From sequence record PV204681: a DNA stretch of 64,000 nt; one strand, 5' to 3'. Made by a program: the position numbers and the translations under genes. Origin of the DNA: Escherichia phage vB_EcoM_JQD51. Under the pieces are notes generated by a model, which was not told the origin of the DNA, ran no database searches, and saw only the letters and a list, made by a program, of their open reading frames with translations. Positions 4,462 to 55,412 of this stretch are shown piece after piece (positions within the stretch are counted from its first letter, which is position 1; each line of letters opens with the position of its first letter).

Positions 4462-4492
4462 ATTATACTCTAATCCGTCCTTGGATGTAAAC
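4462..4492 (-). promoter_or_regulatory. T4-type early promoter (GTTTAC -35 / TATAAT -10), dyad ccaaggacgg in spacer
   Basis: Plus-strand attata...gtaaac with 18-19 nt spacing; same architecture repeated at 50943 and 51501. Confidence 0.55.
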
Positions 4493-11640: not shown

Positions 11641-11668
11641 TTAGATTTCCTCAATTATCCATAGGAGC

Positions 11669-11698
11669 ATTATACTCTGCTCCTGAGAGTTTGTAAAC
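11669..11698 (-). promoter_or_regulatory. T4-type early promoter with dyad ggagca...tgctcc around the -10
   Basis: Plus attata (11669-11674) / gtaaac (11693-11698), 18-nt spacer. Confidence 0.55.
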
Positions 11699-11922
11699 TA
11701 TTTTACTAAAGATTCAATATACTCGTGAAGAGCTTTAGTCGCTACTGCCCACTTATTCTGATATTCATTTTTCAGATTAGCACGAGACTGAACTAACAAT
11801 CGGTCATTAGTCGGAGGCAAAGATTCTAATCGTTGAATCTGGCGCCCATAAATCATAGCCGCCATTTCAGATTCATAGATAAGCCCTTTAATGTATTCAT
11901 GTTGTTCTTTAGTCATTGGCAT
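11698..11922 (-). CDS. Hypothetical protein
   Basis: 74-aa ORF. Confidence 0.4.
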   Translation of the reverse strand: MPMTKEQHEYIKGLIYESEMAAMIYGRQIQRLESLPPTNDRLLVQSRANLKNEYQNKWAVATKALHEYIESLVK

Positions 11923-13074: not shown

Positions 13075-13104
13075 ATAGTAACACCTTCCTTGGTGTTTGT
13101 AAAC
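13075..13104 (-). promoter_or_regulatory. T4-type early promoter
   Basis: Plus atagta / gtaaac, 18-nt spacer; between rnlA stop and alc start. Confidence 0.45.
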
Positions 13105-14259: not shown

Positions 14260-14289
14260 ATTGTACCACAATCCTTGTGGCATGTAAAC
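14260..14289 (-). promoter_or_regulatory. T4-type early promoter
   Basis: Plus attgta / gtaaac, 18-nt spacer, then SD gagga before rnlA ATG. Confidence 0.45.
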
Positions 14290-20907: not shown

Positions 20908-21300
20908 CTACTTTTTAAAAGTTTTTTGCAAAAGTTTGATGATTTCGTCGACGTTGGTTTCGTCTACGATACAATGGATTTTTGTTACACCTAAAGTTAT
21001 ACCTTCGTTAGTAGGTTGAGGCTTTACTAAATCTACCTCAATAAAGTATTTGAACTCGTCAGGATAGATCTCAAAATAAGTTTCAATTCCACCACCGGCA
21101 GAACATACAGTACCATCTTCCATAGTTACACTTACTACGTTTGACGTATCGCTATCATAATCAGGTTCCATTCCGTTTACAACAAAACTAGGCCCGTGGA
21201 GTTCAATCAATTTTAACATCTTAGCGTTATTGTGTGGTGCTTCTTGAACAAAGTCGTCTTTAAATAAAGGGTTAATGATATAAGATTTTCCGATTTCCAT
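20908..21300 (-). CDS. Hypothetical protein (frd.x position)
   Basis: 130-aa ORF. Confidence 0.45.
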   Translation of the reverse strand: MEIGKSYIINPLFKDDFVQEAPHNNAKMLKLIELHGPSFVVNGMEPDYDSDTSNVVSVTMEDGTVCSAGGGIETYFEIYPDEFKYFIEVDLVKPQPTNEGITLGVTKIHCIVDETNVDEIIKLLQKTFKK

Positions 21301-39961: not shown

Positions 39962-40005
39962 GCTAATTTCCTCAATTGATTAATGTTTTTGTAATCCATG
40001 AGAGC

Positions 40006-40035
40006 ATTATACTCTGCTCTCAAGAGTTTGTACAA
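40006..40035 (-). promoter_or_regulatory. Early promoter for ndd with dyad gagagca...tgctctc around the -10
   Basis: Plus attata (40006-40011) and ttgtac-type -35; 7-bp inverted repeat flanks the -10. Confidence 0.5.
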
Positions 40036-40037
40036 TT

Positions 40038-40238
40038 TTATTCGGCTATATCAGAACGTTCAAAAAGCTCTTCAACAGTTAAACATTCAGTGTCATCTTC
40101 AATAAAGAATCGAGTCCAACACGTTGGGGCGATACAGTTATGAGTTTGTCCGGCGATAGAAGCTACACGAATAAGCTGCTGACCATTATTCAGAACAAAT
40201 TTTTCACCAATTTCAACATCTTTAAAAAGCTTAGCCAT
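40038..40238 (-). CDS. Hypothetical protein (ndd.x position)
   Basis: 66-aa ORF. Confidence 0.4.
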   Translation of the reverse strand: MAKLFKDVEIGEKFVLNNGQQLIRVASIAGQTHNCIAPTCWTRFFIEDDTECLTVEELFERSDIAE

Positions 40239-48748: not shown

Positions 48749-49159
48749 TTATTCCTTAAAATGTGCTTTCAGCATTTGATACAAAGACCATGCCTGGTCA
48801 TTATTTTCGATAGTAATCGTCATCACAGGAAATTCAGACAATTCACCAAGTTCACCAGAATCTTGCTCTTCAGACGCTTGATATGGATTTTCAACTTCGT
48901 CAAAGAACTCTGCTTCATTCGTGGAGAGCCAGATAAAGTTTTCATCAAGGATATCACCGCCTGTTGCGTATCCAACCGTGCCAGTAGATGTTAAAATTTT
49001 AGTAGGACGTCCGAGATGGTCAACATCTAAAATTTTAAAAGGTTCCATGCCAAGACGTCGTGCATAAATCCCATTAACAGTGTGGTCTTTAATAAACTCT
49101 TCTTGGGCACGTTTATCTATAAATTGGTACCATGAGTTAACGCGGAATTTATTAGCCAT
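48749..49159 (-). CDS. Hypothetical protein (paralog of 48139..48564)
   Basis: ORF track 48749..49177, start trimmed to Met at 49159. Confidence 0.45.
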
Positions 49160-49431
49160 TAGTAAGTTTCCTTCCAATAAGTTGTACCATTTTCAGTGAT
49201 TTCACGGAAGATGCCATAGATAGGCATTTCATCACCAAGTTTTTCGTAAACGTAAACCACTTCGGTGTAGCATAAAAATTCGGTCCAGTTTTTCTGTACA
49301 ACAACTAAATCAGGATTAAACAGAACATCTTCAAACTCATCGATGTTTGAATCAGTAGTTACGTTTTTAATGATTTGACGTTTCATAATATTCTCCTCTT
49401 GTTTTGATAAGTCTATAGTATCATAGACCAT
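49159..49431 (-). CDS. Hypothetical protein
   Basis: 90-aa ORF. Confidence 0.45.
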
Positions 49432-49443
49432 AGTTGTTGTACA

Positions 49444-49968
49444 TCATTTTAGCAAAATAAAATCAACTTGTTCTGCCAATGAACGTCTAAACATTAATTG
49501 ACAACTTCCGAGGATGAAATCAGGTGCTTCATAGACCGCGATGTAGTATCCTTTAGCTTTCAAGAGTTCAACATCCACCTGGTCATCAAACCATGCATAA
49601 ACCGCGTCAACGCTTTCAAATCCAAAATAGAACCCTTGAGCCCAATCTTCACTCAATTCAAATGTGTACTCAATTCTATGGTATCTTAAGATATTTTGTT
49701 CAAGAAGTTTGTCTTCATTTACTGTAGGACGATTAGGGACATTATAGTTGTCGCCGTGATGGTAGAAGTTACCTGAGAGTATTCCATGCTTATCAAGGAA
49801 CTCCCATGTTTCTTCAGAGTTGTCAGTGCCAGACCAACCGTAAGGTGAGCGAGGTTCTTTATTCCAAGAGGTTTCCCAAATTCTGACGGCTTTACCATCT
49901 TCGATAGCAATTCCTGGTAATGATTCACGTTGAGTACAAAAACTACGTTCTACTCGGTAAACTAACAT
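49444..49968 (-). CDS. Hypothetical protein
   Basis: 174-aa ORF. Confidence 0.45.
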   Translation of the reverse strand: MLVYRVERSFCTQRESLPGIAIEDGKAVRIWETSWNKEPRSPYGWSGTDNSEETWEFLDKHGILSGNFYHHGDNYNVPNRPTVNEDKLLEQNILRYHRIEYTFELSEDWAQGFYFGFESVDAVYAWFDDQVDVELLKAKGYYIAVYEAPDFILGSCQLMFRRSLAEQVDFILLK

Positions 49969-50027
49969 ATTATTCTCCTCTGGTTGATATGGTTATAATA
50001 TCAAAACCAGAGGAGAAGTAAACAACT

Positions 50028-50447
50028 TTATGCGAAAGCAGCTGGGCTATATTTTTTAATTTGGAATTCAGGAACTACCATGAACTGACCAGCGAAAACG
50101 ATGTTATAAAGCTTAACACCATCTTCTACCCAACGGTCGCTAATAAATCCGGCGATTTGCTTAGTTTTCCATGGCGTTCCATCAGTTGCCGCAGCAATAG
50201 TGAATTCATGGTCTTTTTCAACAGAAACTGATCTGCATAGTCCCCATTTGAACGCTTTTTCTTCTGGCTCAATGAACTGGCTTGAGACGTAGCCAATATT
50301 ACCATTAGCATCACGAACTTTAACTTGGTTACGACCAAAAACCGGATCACTCACAGAAAGAACTTCAACCAACTTCCCGGCAACTTTAGAGCGAGAAGCA
50401 ACAGATACATATACGTAATCACCTGTAGAGAGATTTACAATATTCAT
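50028..50447 (-). CDS. MotB-like protein (KOW-like N-terminus), paralog 1
   Basis: 139-aa ORF; N-terminal G.YVYVSVASRSKVAGKLVEV and C-terminal FISDRWVEDGVKLYNIVFAGQF shared with two neighbours. Confidence 0.5.
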   Translation of the reverse strand: MNIVNLSTGDYVYVSVASRSKVAGKLVEVLSVSDPVFGRNQVKVRDANGNIGYVSSQFIEPEEKAFKWGLCRSVSVEKDHEFTIAAATDGTPWKTKQIAGFISDRWVEDGVKLYNIVFAGQFMVVPEFQIKKYSPAAFA

Positions 50448-50456
50448 AATAATTCC

Positions 50457-50912
50457 TTAAGCTTTACGAGGAGACACATAGCGAGTGATTTCGGATTCTT
50501 TAACAACTCGGAAGTCACCTAAGAATACGATATTGTATAACTTTTCACCATCTTCAACCCATTGGTCACTGATGAAGCCGCACATAATATCAGTTTTGTT
50601 TGGATAACCATATTCGTCGATGAAATCAAATTCTTTATCAGTCCGGAATTCAACGCCTTTGCAAAGGGCCCATTTGAACTGTACATTAGGTTCAGTAGAA
50701 GCAAAATGAGCGCTCACATGAGTTTCCAAGAATTTAGGACTTACGTAAGCGTACTGAGTTTCAGTTTTTCCAGAACTAGGAATGATTCGAACTTTAACTT
50801 CTTTAACACGTCCAGTACCATTAGTACGAAGTCCTACCACTTCAACTAGACGACCTGCAGCTTTAGAACGAGATGCAGACGATACACGCTTAATTTCACC
50901 AATAGTAATCAT
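50457..50912 (-). CDS. MotB-like protein, paralog 2
   Basis: ORF track 50457..50975, start trimmed to Met at 50912 downstream of promoter; SRSKAAGRLVEV and FISDQWVEDGEKLYNIVF motifs. Confidence 0.5.
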   Translation of the reverse strand: MITIGEIKRVSSASRSKAAGRLVEVVGLRTNGTGRVKEVKVRIIPSSGKTETQYAYVSPKFLETHVSAHFASTEPNVQFKWALCKGVEFRTDKEFDFIDEYGYPNKTDIMCGFISDQWVEDGEKLYNIVFLGDFRVVKESEITRYVSPRKA

Positions 50913-50942
50913 AATTTCTCTCTCTTTGTTTAAATTGAATTC

Positions 50943-50972
50943 ATTATACTCCATCCATCCTTGGATGTACAA
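50943..50972 (-). promoter_or_regulatory. Early promoter with ccatccttggatg dyad in spacer
   Basis: Plus attata (50943-50948) and gtacaa-type -35; near-identical to promoters at 4462 and 51501. Confidence 0.5.
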
Positions 50973-50974
50973 CA

Positions 50975-51469
50975 TTAATTAAGGATATTAACCACAGCAC
51001 TACGTGGAACTACACTAAAATCACCTGCATGAACAACGTTCAGAAGTTCAACACCGTCTTCAATCCACTGATCAGTTACCCATCCATTTACTGGACCTGC
51101 GAACGGACGTCGAATTGAAACATATTTACACAACAAATCAGTAGGCTCAATAGGCTTAATCAGAGTACCGTACATACAAGCGATATCCATATCAATACAG
51201 ATATCTTTAACGGGTTCTACTTCTTCAATCAACAGTTCAAAGTCGGTGCTTGGAAGGGCGGTAGTAGAAATTGTACCATATGAATTTTTAATTTCTAAGA
51301 ATAACCAAGGGCCTTCAACTTGTTTGATGAAGTTAACAATAGTGAAACTATTACCTTGAGTGGCACCTAAAATTTCACAAAACTTTTCATAAGCTCGCAC
51401 TGAAGCACCATACCAGTTGATTTGTTTTTCATCTTTCAGGATGTAAGTAGCCGTTGTATTGATATTCAT
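50975..51469 (-). CDS. MotB-like protein, paralog 3 (about 164 aa, T4 MotB-sized)
   Basis: ORF track 50975..51511, start trimmed to Met at 51469 (SD aggaaa); C-terminal WVTDQWIEDGVELLNVVHAGDF motif. Confidence 0.5.
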   Translation of the reverse strand: MNINTTATYILKDEKQINWYGASVRAYEKFCEILGATQGNSFTIVNFIKQVEGPWLFLEIKNSYGTISTTALPSTDFELLIEEVEPVKDICIDMDIACMYGTLIKPIEPTDLLCKYVSIRRPFAGPVNGWVTDQWIEDGVELLNVVHAGDFSVVPRSAVVNILN

Positions 51470-51500
51470 AATGTTTTCCTGTTTGGTTAAGATAGAAAGA

Positions 51501-51530
51501 TTATACTCCAACCATCCTTGGTTGTAAACT
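51501..51530 (-). promoter_or_regulatory. Early promoter with caaccatccttggttg dyad in spacer
   Basis: Plus attata (51501-51506) / gtaaac (51525-51530), 18-nt spacer. Confidence 0.55.
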
Positions 51531-51534
51531 GGTT

Positions 51535-52212
51535 TTATCGCTGTTTTACACTTAACGGGTCAGGATTCTCAGGGACATCTTCAAGGCCAAGCGCATAACG
51601 CTGAGCATATTTTAACATCAAAATATCTTTAGCACAATCGTGAATACTATCATGGGCAACGAATCCTTTTAGCGTACCCATCGGTAATGGACACATACTT
51701 AATCCTCGTGTCAACGAGTAAGCTTCGATTGCTGTACGAATATCACGTTGAGCCCAGAATTTAACCGGTTCTAATTTATCAGTATCAATATCTGGTTCAA
51801 GAACACCTTCATCACGATAGAGGTCACGAATCAAATCGACCAAGATCGGGAAGTCAAAGCTCATACCACGGCACCACATCTGTGATTTCCATTGGTCAAC
51901 TTTATTAGCTCGACAATAATCTAAAAAGATTTTAATGCCTTCAAGCGTAGTGACATCGTCTTCAGACGGAGCCAGGTTTTTACGTGCTTCTGCTGATTGT
52001 TCTTTCCACCATTTCATAGTGGATTTAGCGAAAACTCGCTTCCCTTTTTGAGAAGCTAAATTAAATTTAATTCGCTTACCTCGTTGAACAAGTTCTTCAA
52101 ATGTTTCAACAACTTCAGGGTCCGAATTATATGCAATAACCGCAAGGTCAATAACAGCCGCTTTTGATGTATTGCCGAATGTTTCAAAATCTATAATAAC
52201 ATCAGTGCTCAT
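51535..52212 (-). CDS. dexA: Exonuclease A (DEDDh 3'-5' exonuclease)
   Basis: 225-aa ORF (T4 DexA 227 aa); N-terminal IIDFETFG exonuclease motif; upstream neighbour is dda. Confidence 0.85.
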   Translation of the reverse strand: MSTDVIIDFETFGNTSKAAVIDLAVIAYNSDPEVVETFEELVQRGKRIKFNLASQKGKRVFAKSTMKWWKEQSAEARKNLAPSEDDVTTLEGIKIFLDYCRANKVDQWKSQMWCRGMSFDFPILVDLIRDLYRDEGVLEPDIDTDKLEPVKFWAQRDIRTAIEAYSLTRGLSMCPLPMGTLKGFVAHDSIHDCAKDILMLKYAQRYALGLEDVPENPDPLSVKQR

Positions 52213-52221
52213 AATTTTCTC

Positions 52222-53535
52222 TCAAATAAAATGGACGTCAAACCGACCACGAGTTGTGCCAACATACAATAACTGTTTAGCTAATTCTGAATCGGCATAA
52301 TGGATACACGGTGTATAAACAAAGGCCGTGTCAACAGACATACCCTGGGCCTTATGGAAGGTCGATACTGGTAGTGCCTTCACCTTAGTGAACATACGTT
52401 TAGCATCCCAGAATTCGCTCCATGGAGCTTTACCACCTTTATTCCAAAATTTGTATGTTTCTGCGGTCTTAGCCAAAAACAAATTGAATTTATAAAGCTC
52501 TTCTTCAGAAGAAATAACCTTTATATCTTCGCGGATGTATTCTTCATCATCCCCATACGTTTCTACTGTAAGATTCCAGTATCGTATCATATATTCGCCT
52601 GAAACACCACGTGCTTTAACGAATGTAGACGTTTCTACAGCATCTCGAATACGAACGAATTGACCGTTATTGAAAAGCATTTCGGTCATATTTTTACCAT
52701 CTAGCTTATATGTCTTAGTAAACGGCTCTTGTAGAACAATGACTTCGTCTTTAATAAATGGTTTTTCTGTTTCAAGAAGTTTTCGGCGAATAATTGAATT
52801 TAACTTGTCCACCGACTTATTTGTGAATGCCATCATTCGATTTTCGAAAAGGTCTTCAGGAGTTTTAACGACGTTAAAATAGTTCATCATATACGATTTA
52901 AGGTCTGTATATCCGTGAACACCGTGCCCATCAACTACTTTATCGTAAATCCATTTGCCGTTACGAATATCAGTCGCAACATCAATAATTGGTGCATTGC
53001 TACGTTTAACTTCTGTAAGGTTGCATTGCACGAAGTCTTTGTGAGTGAAGAAAGGACTTAGATATGCAGTTGATTCGCCTGGGTCTACCGGACGAATCTG
53101 GCATCGGTCGCCGATTCCAATTACTGTACACCATTTAGGGATACTAGCTAACATTATTTTAAACAGAGAACGGTCGCACATTGACGCTTCATCAAATAAC
53201 AGTACACGGCACAAGGCTAAGTCTGGAACCTTTTTCTGTTCAAACAATACGTTTTCTTCGTATGTAGTTGGGTTGATTTTAAGAATGCTATGAATAGTCG
53301 ATGCTTCTTGACCCGCAAGTTTGCTTAGAACCTTTTTAGCAGCATGTGTAGGGGCTGCTAAAATAATACCTGATTCTCCAGAAGAAATAAGGGCTTCAAC
53401 GATGAATCTAGTAAGGGTTGTTTTACCTGTACCGGCAGGCCCATTAATAGTTACGTGATGTTTCTTTTCTTTAATAGCGTTCATAACAACGTTGAAGGCG
53501 TTTTTCTGGCCTTCAGTCAAATCATCAAATGTCAT
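52222..53535 (-). CDS. dda: Dda DNA helicase (SF1B)
   Basis: 437-aa ORF (T4 Dda 439 aa); Walker A GPAGTGKTT and collinear helicase motifs. Confidence 0.93.
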   Translation of the reverse strand: MTFDDLTEGQKNAFNVVMNAIKEKKHHVTINGPAGTGKTTLTRFIVEALISSGESGIILAAPTHAAKKVLSKLAGQEASTIHSILKINPTTYEENVLFEQKKVPDLALCRVLLFDEASMCDRSLFKIMLASIPKWCTVIGIGDRCQIRPVDPGESTAYLSPFFTHKDFVQCNLTEVKRSNAPIIDVATDIRNGKWIYDKVVDGHGVHGYTDLKSYMMNYFNVVKTPEDLFENRMMAFTNKSVDKLNSIIRRKLLETEKPFIKDEVIVLQEPFTKTYKLDGKNMTEMLFNNGQFVRIRDAVETSTFVKARGVSGEYMIRYWNLTVETYGDDEEYIREDIKVISSEEELYKFNLFLAKTAETYKFWNKGGKAPWSEFWDAKRMFTKVKALPVSTFHKAQGMSVDTAFVYTPCIHYADSELAKQLLYVGTTRGRFDVHFI

Positions 53536-53843
53536 CGTAAAGTCCCTGCAATTGGAATACTAACAATACGGCCTGTATCCAGGATTCGTTGATACAATTT
53601 TTGCGTCTCCGCATCTAGTTTAACGTGTTTCATTTCAAGCTTATTAAACCAGAACTTACGCGGAGTTTCGACCATTCTTAGAACTCCCATTTTTAAATCT
53701 GTTTTATACTGTGTTTTCAGAGTATCGAAAACTTTATCTGCAATATCCTTTCTAAAAAATACCGCAGGACGATGCTCGTCAAGTGGAACCGGGACAGTAA
53801 ATCCTTCCATATCTCGATAAACTATTGCATATACATAAACCAT
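53532..53843 (-). CDS. Hypothetical protein (dda.1 position)
   Basis: 103-aa ORF. Confidence 0.45.
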   Translation of the reverse strand: MVYVYAIVYRDMEGFTVPVPLDEHRPAVFFRKDIADKVFDTLKTQYKTDLKMGVLRMVETPRKFWFNKLEMKHVKLDAETQKLYQRILDTGRIVSIPIAGTLR

Positions 53844-55353: not shown

Positions 55354-55412
55354 TTAGGTTTCTCCTCACGTTTCGATAAAGTAATCATAACACCGTCTGT
55401 GGTGGTTGTAAA

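Follow-up and report, generated by a model that had tools for sequence, protein, structure and literature searches.

Spacer hairpins as the probable basis of near-identical early promoters in the MotB region of Escherichia phage vB_EcoM_JQD51

The 64,000-nucleotide stretch of Escherichia phage vB_EcoM_JQD51 analyzed here (sequence record PV204681; hereafter the window, whose positions are used throughout) carries on its minus strand three near-identical early-type promoters, two of them in front of genes of the MotB family, and our subject is a short hairpin motif in the spacer between their -35 and -10 elements. Early promoters of the T4 type (Pe) have in common with the three window promoters the GTTTAC(A/T) -35 sequence, the 17±1 nt spacer, the TATAAT-like -10 hexamer, the early-gene strand and the location, but published work handles the Pe as one consensus, whereas those of this phage can in general be grouped into near-identical sub-families, and the one to which the three belong (family A) has a structured motif in its spacer. 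The T4 promoter PnrdC.7, whose start has been experimentally mapped at 53325 (Hinton 2010, Table 1), contains the same motif as taCC-AAGGAT-GGta, and its orthologs in Mosigvirus and Gaprivervirus keep the motif with compensated arms; it differs in being MotA-dependent, with a GCTTTA box in place of the -35 hexamer, while the three window copies are of the early type.

Three further systems bear on this locus. The PeSL cassettes (Arbiol 2010, PMC2839356; Comeau 2014, PMC4122927) are likewise conserved modules of promoter and stem-loop that lie in hyperplastic regions, are often tandem and flank small accessory genes, and go with differences in gene order between related phages, but their stem-loop lies just upstream of the promoter and is a terminator, whereas the family-A hairpin lies within the spacer and has 4-6 bp, an invariant loop and no U-tract; the PeSL stems, GGGG...CCCC in RB49 and AGNA-loop-TCNT in PST and T4, also differ from it. 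The hairpins of T4 genes e, soc, 49 and I-TevI (PMC3014915) resemble it in that a promoter lies in or beside a hairpin whose complete structure is present only in upstream-derived transcripts; those promoters are late ones, however, and the family-A hairpin excludes the downstream ribosome binding site. Finally, T4 MotB comprises a KOW motif at the N-terminus and an OB fold at the C-terminus, and MotB.1 has only the C-terminal domain in common with it (Patterson-West 2021, PMC7827196). MotB binds DNA non-specifically, alters the interaction of H-NS with DNA and is toxic in E. coli (PMC7827196), and RB69 has two motB genes and one motB.1 (Patterson-West 2021, PMC7827196). The window genes differ in nothing essential from this family (Patterson-West 2018, 2021).

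The window comes from a Mosigvirus, that is, an RB69-like T-even phage; positions 49900-52300 are 99.4% identical to Escherichia phage vB_EcoM_SA79RD (SA79RD below) and have matches in 464 phage records. The promoter before motB.1 (51500-51529, minus strand) reads GTTTACA-ACCAAGGATGGTTGGAG-TATAAT, with the -35 hexamer TTTACA at 51528-51523, a 17-nt spacer and the -10 hexamer at 51505-51500. That before motB and its second copy (50943-50972, minus) reads TTGTACA-TCCAAGGATGGATGGAG-TATAAT, with TGTACA at 50971-50966, again a 17-nt spacer, and the -10 at 50948-50943. The third (4462-4492, minus) reads GTTTACA-TCCAAGGACGGATTAGAG-TATAAT, with TTTACA from 4491 and an 18-nt spacer, and lies upstream of a 65-aa gene in the gene-30.x hyperplastic region (a 30.5-like gene). 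All three thus have a -35 of the GTTTAC(A/T) type (TGTACA in the 50972 copy), a spacer of 16-18 nt and a -10 near TATAAT, and an independent consensus scan placed the sites at 51529 (11/12 matches) and 50972 (10/12) first among the sigma-70-like sites of 48800-53700. They sit in intergenic gaps of 54-65 bp, straight after a stop codon and 40-60 nt before a start codon; the first begins 6 nt beyond the dexA stop codon and the second directly after that of motB.1. The 16 nt upstream of them are A/T-rich but overlap the preceding coding end, with no clear A-tract at the UP-like position. We regard the three as one sub-family of T4-type early promoters, predicted from sequence and by analogy with T4 to be used by the host sigma-70 RNA polymerase. 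As such they are already known as predictions, and nothing new: the RB69 early promoters Pe:8947 and Pe:8387 were predicted at the equivalents of 51529 and 50972 (Nolan 2006), and SA79RD annotates promoters at the counterparts of 51500-51529 and 4462-4491.

How far these promoters agree was measured against an early-promoter scan of the window and 21-90 kb of SA79RD, whose stricter set comprised 50 putative promoters. Over the 16 nt upstream of the -10 hexamer these candidates have a mean pairwise identity of 5.85/16 (sd 2.3), compared with 15-16/16 within family A and 15/16 between the spacers of the two MotB-region copies. Five family-A copies are present in the phage lineage, the three of the window and those at SA79RD 50585 and 51605, before nrdC.4- and nrdC.5-like genes; two further RB69 early promoters predicted in the nrdC region, Pe:51019 and Pe:52042, lie 1023 bp apart (Nolan 2006), spaced like these two and, as judged by position, on or near them. 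The family-A 30-mer occurs in 215 phage records, with two to four copies per listed Mosigvirus genome and one per listed Dhakavirus genome, and that at 51500-51529 is 100% identical in many Mosigvirus genomes. An earlier reading of the window from its letters alone (the sequence-only reading) had reported near-identical promoters before two MotB-type genes and a third at 4462-4492 before an unrelated small gene, and both this observation and the extension of the similarity beyond generic hexamers (15/16 in the spacer; 0/100 shuffles) are borne out.

The spacer sequence that these promoters share has the form NNCC-AAGGAY-GGN'N', a stem of 4-6 bp with the loop AAGGAY or AGGA, in which a non-palindromic centre is invariant and the arms covary. 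In the window, on the minus strand, it appears as CAACC-AAGGAT-GGTTG at 51507-51526 (29 bits, E=3.5e-5, with a covariance model, R1, built from these sequences), as CATCC-AAGGAT-GGATG at 50950-50969 (28.8 bits) and as ATCC-AAGGAC-GGAT at 4470-4489 (25.9 bits), and an A:T pair in the stem of the first is T:A in the second, a compensatory change. A one-mismatch form, ACACC-AAGGAA-GGTGT (13079-13098, minus; 25.3 bits), is carried 3-4 nt nearer the -10 by the early promoter GTTTACA ... TACTAT (13075-13104, minus), and another early promoter (14260-14289, minus) has the variant CCACA-AGGAT-TGTGG. True copies score at least 22 bits with R1, and noise at most 14. A further spacer hairpin, CACC-ACAGAC-GGTG (55388-55407, minus; R1 13.4 bits), is related but has another loop or stem.

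The exact sequence CCAAGGAYGG occurs at only three places in the 64-kb window, the three promoters; with one mismatch allowed there are 9 matches where 3.0 are expected, and none of 100 shuffles reaches 9. In the about 154 kb scanned there are eight exact copies, all on the early-gene strand and all within promoter spacers. Seven are in predicted early promoters (the five of family A plus SA79RD 72964 and 73462, which are 3-4 nt nearer the -10), and the eighth is in the spacer of an annotated T4-type (MotA) middle promoter at SA79RD 52653. The arms were not included in the search patterns, yet the two bases that flank CC...GG on each side are complementary in every copy, though they differ between copies. 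Pairing in the 4-bp core stem reaches 100% over 11 distinct sequences (shifted-register controls, 23-45%), none of 500 shuffles reaches the observed covariation score, and the two variable pairs take the forms AU/CG/UA/UG and AU/UA/CG/GU. Family A has two departures from pairing, A·C on the sense strand (G·U if the antisense strand is taken); among the wider set, sense-strand G·U pairs occur (few events). The sequence-only reading had called the element a dyad. A shared element it is, but it is not a simple palindrome, as the centre CC-AAGGAY-GG is asymmetric and the complementary arms vary between copies.

An Rfam scan of the whole window gave no family at gathering thresholds, and the motif was not found in a relevant bacteriophage context in a literature search. 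A scan of IMG/VR with TTTACN{1,6}CCAAGGAYGG was swamped, among the matches listed, by chance matches in unrelated viruses; one with CCAAGGAYGGNNNNNNTATAAT added the Gaprivervirus copy, its other matches being due to chance. The hairpin motif is apparently undescribed, while the promoters and the proteins were already known.

The same gene positions in other genera are informative. Upstream of nrdC.4 (the ortholog being recognized by the protein start MTRxxYI) the stem is ACAACC/GGTTGG in Mosigvirus, ACATCC/GGATGG in Dhakavirus and ACTTCC/GGAGGG in Gaprivervirus (VR20/SP18), and the T4 nrdC.4 promoter has a variant, TTTACT-ttg-CCACA-AGGA-TGTGG-TATAAT, that the window hairpin at 14260-14289 matches. 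In T4 and Gaprivervirus the middle promoter has the sequence GCTTTA-taCC-AAGGAT-GGta-TAAT, with arms TACC/GGTA; that of Mosigvirus is GCTTTAC-CC-AAGGAC-GG-GT-TATAAT, with arms ACCC/GGGT. The T4 copy is PnrdC.7; its hairpin abuts the -10 hexamer, and the mapped start at 53325 is exactly 7 nt past the adjoining TATAAT. A family-A-like sequence, TTTAAA-g-CC-AAGGAT-GG-ctcggag-TATAAA, lies upstream of T4 nrdC.3. Where genera are compared at the same gene position, their stems are thus shown to differ by compensatory substitutions. Overall, between 2 and 7 nt separate the motif from the -10 downstream of it, both in early and in middle promoters, and this holds in four Tevenvirinae genera, represented by Mosigvirus, Dhakavirus, Gaprivervirus and T4; the motif is ancient within the Tevenvirinae and not confined to a single class of promoter. 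We also note that SA79RD 49580-52660, outside the window, contains three adjacent genes of ~315-330 aa (nrdC.4-, nrdC.5- and nrdC.6-like), all ending in a coiled-coil-like segment and each preceded by a hairpin-bearing promoter, two early and one middle. BLAST finds no similarity among the three, and possibly they are very distant paralogs.

Taken as a whole, the shared look of the promoters is probably due to a hairpin motif in the spacer, and not to joint duplication with their genes. If used as predicted, the promoters at 51529 and 50972 would drive motB.1 and the motB/motB' pair (motB' being the second motB copy), and the 4491 copy the gene-30.x small genes, with transcription by the host sigma-70 RNA polymerase right after infection. 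Each promoter's own transcript would start ~7 nt past the -10, downstream of the hairpin, so that the hairpin would exist as RNA only in read-through from the upstream gene, and otherwise as a DNA structure. Transcripts running past the end of dexA into the MotB genes would include the first hairpin. Read-through is common in T4 prereplicative transcription (PMC2988021), T4 genes e, soc, 49 and I-TevI have structures that only the longer transcript contains (PMC3014915), and PeSL cassettes pair early promoters with stem-loops; by these analogies, a role in cis on the read-through RNA appears most likely, through processing, 3'-end protection or insulation between cistrons. The ~30-bp identical modules would also be short homology patches for modular shuffling in hyperplastic regions.

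A more specific proposal, which we offer tentatively, is that the hairpin is a cis-regulatory element of T-even phages whose invariant loop is recognized by a factor. In one version, the RNase RegB together with ribosomal protein S1 would cut the read-through RNA at the loop GGA(U) or at the GGAG found after the family-A hairpin, and the upstream fragment would keep the hairpin as a protective 3' end; in the other, a promoter-embedded DNA structure would tune an accessory regulon of motB, motB.1 and nrdC.3-7. RegB cuts GGAG/U where the GGA is unpaired. The loop has GGAU or GGAC, and GGAGTATAAT often follows the hairpin; 5/11 distinct sequences have GGAC or GGAA, and because these are not known RegB sites the link to RegB is speculation, only a lead.

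Several points weigh against the hairpin and the role proposed for it. It is short and thermodynamically weak: RNA folds of the whole intergenic sequence of the three regions have z of -0.2 to -0.9, like shuffles (36-nt folding windows, z of -1.2 to -3.1), and since thermodynamics alone gives no support, the case for it rests on covariation. The copies are often related by descent, so that the 8 distinct arm combinations represent few independent compensatory events. There is no U-tract, and thus the hairpin is not a terminator. The role at the RNA level is one that we infer, and a role at the DNA level, as a cruciform or through a monomeric protein reading the 10-bp centre, is possible. A literature search found no mapped transcription start sites for Mosigvirus, so the activity of the window promoters is argued from sequence and the T4 analogy. 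Finally, no motB.1 deletion between the tandem promoters was found among the best-matching genomes, in a search with a chimera of the dexA end, one promoter and the motB start; the top matches all consisted of two pieces ~900 bp apart.

The last point concerns recombination, and the alternative that survives best, though we doubt it as the main explanation, is that the modules are chiefly PeSL-type recombination linkers kept similar by gene conversion, with the hairpin perhaps a target of endonuclease VII or another structure-specific nuclease. This is compatible with the spacer-hairpin explanation. Between genera, gene order and content vary in whole units bounded by promoters (the generic promoter and motB.2 form a unit that follows dexA in T4 and Dhakavirus and the MotB genes in Mosigvirus), and among Mosigvirus strains identity drops from ~100% to 61-72% directly downstream of the 50972 promoter and recovers mid-gene; these two findings support shuffling. 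The modules lie in the dexA-cef, gene-30.x and nrdC regions, hyperplastic locations as for PeSL. Often they form tandem pairs, with 557 bp from one to the next at motB.1, 1020 bp at the nrdC.5-like gene and ~500 bp at SA79RD 72964/73462, and PeSL mini-circles have been demonstrated in RB49 and phi1 (PMC2839356). The upstream terminator of PeSL is lacking: the -35 starts 1-10 nt after the upstream stop codon, which leaves no room for one, and no terminator-like site adjoins the promoters in the region scanned. The homology is also only ~30 bp long, the best-matching genomes showed no motB.1 deletion, as noted, and compensatory stem changes at the same gene position indicate selection on pairing, for which homology patches have no need. 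As a separate observation, the N-terminal half of motB (50700-50912) is a mosaic patch with 61-86% nucleotide identity between strains, with a 5' edge at the 50972 promoter and a 3' edge within the conserved part that codes for the C-terminus, and the flanking genes are 94-100% identical.

The motif might instead be a double-stranded DNA operator at which a phage or host regulator switches a small accessory early regulon. Its place between -35 and -10 is typical for a repressor site, its 10-bp centre is invariant across four genera, it is confined to certain promoters (those of motB.1, motB, 30.5 and nrdC.3-7, plus a few others), and no mechanism is yet known for the shut-off of T4 early promoters (PMC2988021). 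A classical dimeric operator should have inverted half-sites at a fixed distance; here the AAGGAY centre is non-palindromic, and arms that are complementary yet variable point to base pairing and not half-site recognition, as do G-U or U-G pairs in the stem. We favor a hairpin over such an operator because of this invariant asymmetric centre, the covarying arms and the occasional G-U. In addition, the motif lies anywhere from 2 to 7 nt from the -10, and it accompanies -35 hexamers as well as MotA boxes. A shared regulator site had been one of two suggestions of the sequence-only reading; its dimeric form is unlikely in view of the asymmetric centre, the covarying arms with their G-U pairs and the 3-4 nt shift in position, and a monomeric protein reading CCAAGGAYGG is possible. 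As a whole, we consider an operator unlikely.

The other suggestion had been that promoter-gene cassettes were duplicated in tandem, each promoter being copied with its MotB-type gene. Two adjacent paralogous genes each have a module, and in a second tandem array, formed by the nrdC.4- and nrdC.5-like genes, each gene likewise has a module, but this idea now seems very improbable. The block common to the five family-A copies is ~30 bp, from -36 to -7, so that identity ends at the -35/-10 boundaries, and alignment shows the flanks, upstream coding ends and 5' untranslated regions (UTRs) to be unrelated. The motB.1 and motB proteins share ~36 residues at 44% identity, whereas their promoters are 28/30 identical, and the closest paralogs, motB and motB', lie under a single promoter, the latter having none of its own. 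The genes downstream of the five promoters show no BLAST similarity to each other, the module standing before unrelated genes (30.5-, nrdC.4- and nrdC.5-like). Furthermore, in the MotB loci compared (sixteen from IMG/VR, plus T4), an early promoter always follows directly after the motB.1 stop codon, but its sub-family differs by genus: upstream of motB it is aactcttgggaccagag-TATAAT-ggtccc in T4-like phages and Gaprivervirus, ttatcgagagccatgt-TATAAT-ggctctc in Dhakavirus and family A in Mosigvirus.

Least credible is that the similarity is just a generic extended consensus of T4-type early promoters with no separate element, since, even though T4 early promoters agree beyond the -35 and -10 (PMC2988021) and a CC right behind the -35 as well as purine-rich sequence ahead of the -10 are seen here too, this is refuted by the spacer identity (15-16/16 within family A against a 5.85/16 background) and the covarying arms, and the majority consensus of the other promoters lacks CCAAGGAYGG, which also occurs in middle promoters without a -35 element.

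The genes served by the two MotB-region promoters lie on the minus strand in the order dda (52222-53535), the dexA exonuclease gene (51535-52212), motB.1 (ORF3; 50975-51469, 164 aa), motB (ORF2; 50457-50912, 151 aa, the same 151-aa gene as in the RB69 annotation), the second full-length motB paralog (ORF1; 50028-50447, 139 aa), the motB.2 ortholog (49444-49968), which is not related to MotB, and cef; in T4, motB.2 directly follows dexA. ORF1 starts 9 nt past the ORF2 stop codon and is presumably co-transcribed with motB. The three adjacent ORFs with a common C-terminal motif, the KOW-like N-terminus (SRSK-AG-LVEV) of two of them and their membership of a tandemly expanded MotB-type family, all proposed by the sequence-only reading, agree with alignments to T4 MotB and MotB.1 and with Pfam family PF17613 (gathering score 25 bits), which ORF1, ORF2 and ORF3 match with 75.6 bits (E=5e-21), 131.1 bits (E=4e-38) and 35.1 bits (E=1.5e-8), respectively. 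All three also match MotB-like PHROGs, ORF3 matching phrog_2333 with E=1.7e-82.

ORF2 is 48% identical to T4 MotB (E=2e-44), ORF1 and ORF2 align over their full length with 43% identity (E=1.7e-31), and ORF3 is 37% identical to T4 MotB.1 (E=1.5e-27) and has only the C-terminal ~30-36 residues in common with ORF1 and ORF2 (E about 1e-10). In alignments, the C-terminal core (D-Q/R-W-V/I-EDG-x-L-x-N-V/I-V, in an OB-like domain) is seen in all three. ORF1 and ORF2 align with T4 MotB from residue 1 and keep SRSKxAGxLVEV, for which the KOW assignment is taken from PMC7827196; ORF3 lacks this N-terminus and joins an intact MotB-type C-terminal motif, GWVTDQWIEDGVELLNVV, to a distinct, MotB.1-type N-terminal domain. 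Thus, as judged from these comparisons, ORF2 is the MotB ortholog, ORF1 a second MotB copy and ORF3 the MotB.1 ortholog; ORF1, being the closest paralog of ORF2, is probably the youngest duplicate. A tblastn search of the 64-kb window with all MotB-type proteins found no further MotB copy or fragment, and a PDB sequence search with MotB found no solved relative. The triad is correctly recognized but already published, and adds nothing new; the 2003 RB69 record labels RB69ORF010c 'similar to motB'.

In many public records, including SA79RD, motB is called as 172 aa from an ATG at 50975 that overlaps the motB.1 stop codon, and the 21 extra codons are the family-A promoter and 5' UTR (50913-50975). 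Because the 151-aa form fits the T4 MotB N-terminus and the RB69 annotation, the longer form is probably a wrongly called start, and the early-promoter sub-families are of practical use for such annotation. The window motB.1 is intact, as it is in SA79RD and several T4-like contigs (164-181 aa), but in the T4 and RB69 reference sequences it is interrupted just before the conserved C-terminal 28 residues (EDGVELLNVVHAG...) by a single-base insertion, a different one in each; these are either laboratory-strain mutations or old sequencing errors. The 29-aa RB69 ORF012c appears to be the displaced motB.1 C-terminus and the 29-aa RB69 'Category 3' peptide of Patterson-West 2021. The last ~100 nt of motB.1 (50975-51090) are nearly invariant in DNA among T4, a T4-like contig, RB69 and the window, and the remainder of the gene reaches only about 37% protein identity; the invariant end could reflect strong constraint or a recently exchanged patch beside the promoter.

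Other early promoters of this phage are predicted to be structured as well. The generic-type promoter of motB.2 (GTTTACT, a 16-nt spacer and TATTAT; 49995-50023, minus) lies within a 12-bp hairpin (49968-50023, minus; -21 kcal/mol, z=-4.9) whose 3' arm, AACCAGAGGAG, covers the Shine-Dalgarno sequence. Modeled folding suggests that read-through transcripts would mask the ribosome binding site and that promoter-initiated ones would not, an arrangement that fits the T4 e/soc/49/I-TevI cases well; T4 P8.1/motB.2 has a weaker TCCTC/GAGGA pairing. A second sub-family (family B), (G)T(T/G)TACA-AACTCTTGAGAGCAGAG-TATAAT-GCTCTC, is found in the window at 11698 (11659-11709) and 40035 (39996-40047), both minus, at SA79RD 72668 and 42084 and at T4 motB, and an inverted repeat brackets its -10, the arms changing among copies and genera in a compensatory way that keeps them complementary (GAGAGC/GCTCTC, GGAGC/GCTCC, GGGACC/GGTCCC and GGGGTC/GACCCC). 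A third (family C), ...(G)ATAGGACTATGT-TATAGT-AGTCCTAT (also given as -TATAGT-AGTCCTATCAAAACAA), has -35 starts at 20908, 40296, 40805 and 61403 in the window (minus) and at SA79RD 57430, 68296, 69860 and 76783; here too an inverted repeat brackets the -10, forming a hairpin of 9-11 bp with the hexamer in its loop (z -2.2 to -5.7). Folding with z below -2 and the -10 in the loop is seen for 20 of the 61 candidate early promoters in all, and several hairpin promoters are annotated in SA79RD as terminators overlapping promoters.

The small family-A hairpin, with its invariant loop and compensating stem from T4 to RB69-, JS98- and SP18-like phages, is possibly worth a specialist's time, and PnrdC.7, a mapped T4 promoter with a conserved structured element, makes it possible to test directly and cheaply whether an element of this kind matters. 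T4 prereplicative transcription is among the best-studied systems, yet the shut-off of early promoters and, for early genes, the distinction between read-through and promoter-initiated transcripts are only partly understood; if true, either version of the proposed cis-regulatory element, the cutting of read-through RNA by RegB and S1 or the promoter-embedded DNA structure, would be a previously unrecognized layer of control.

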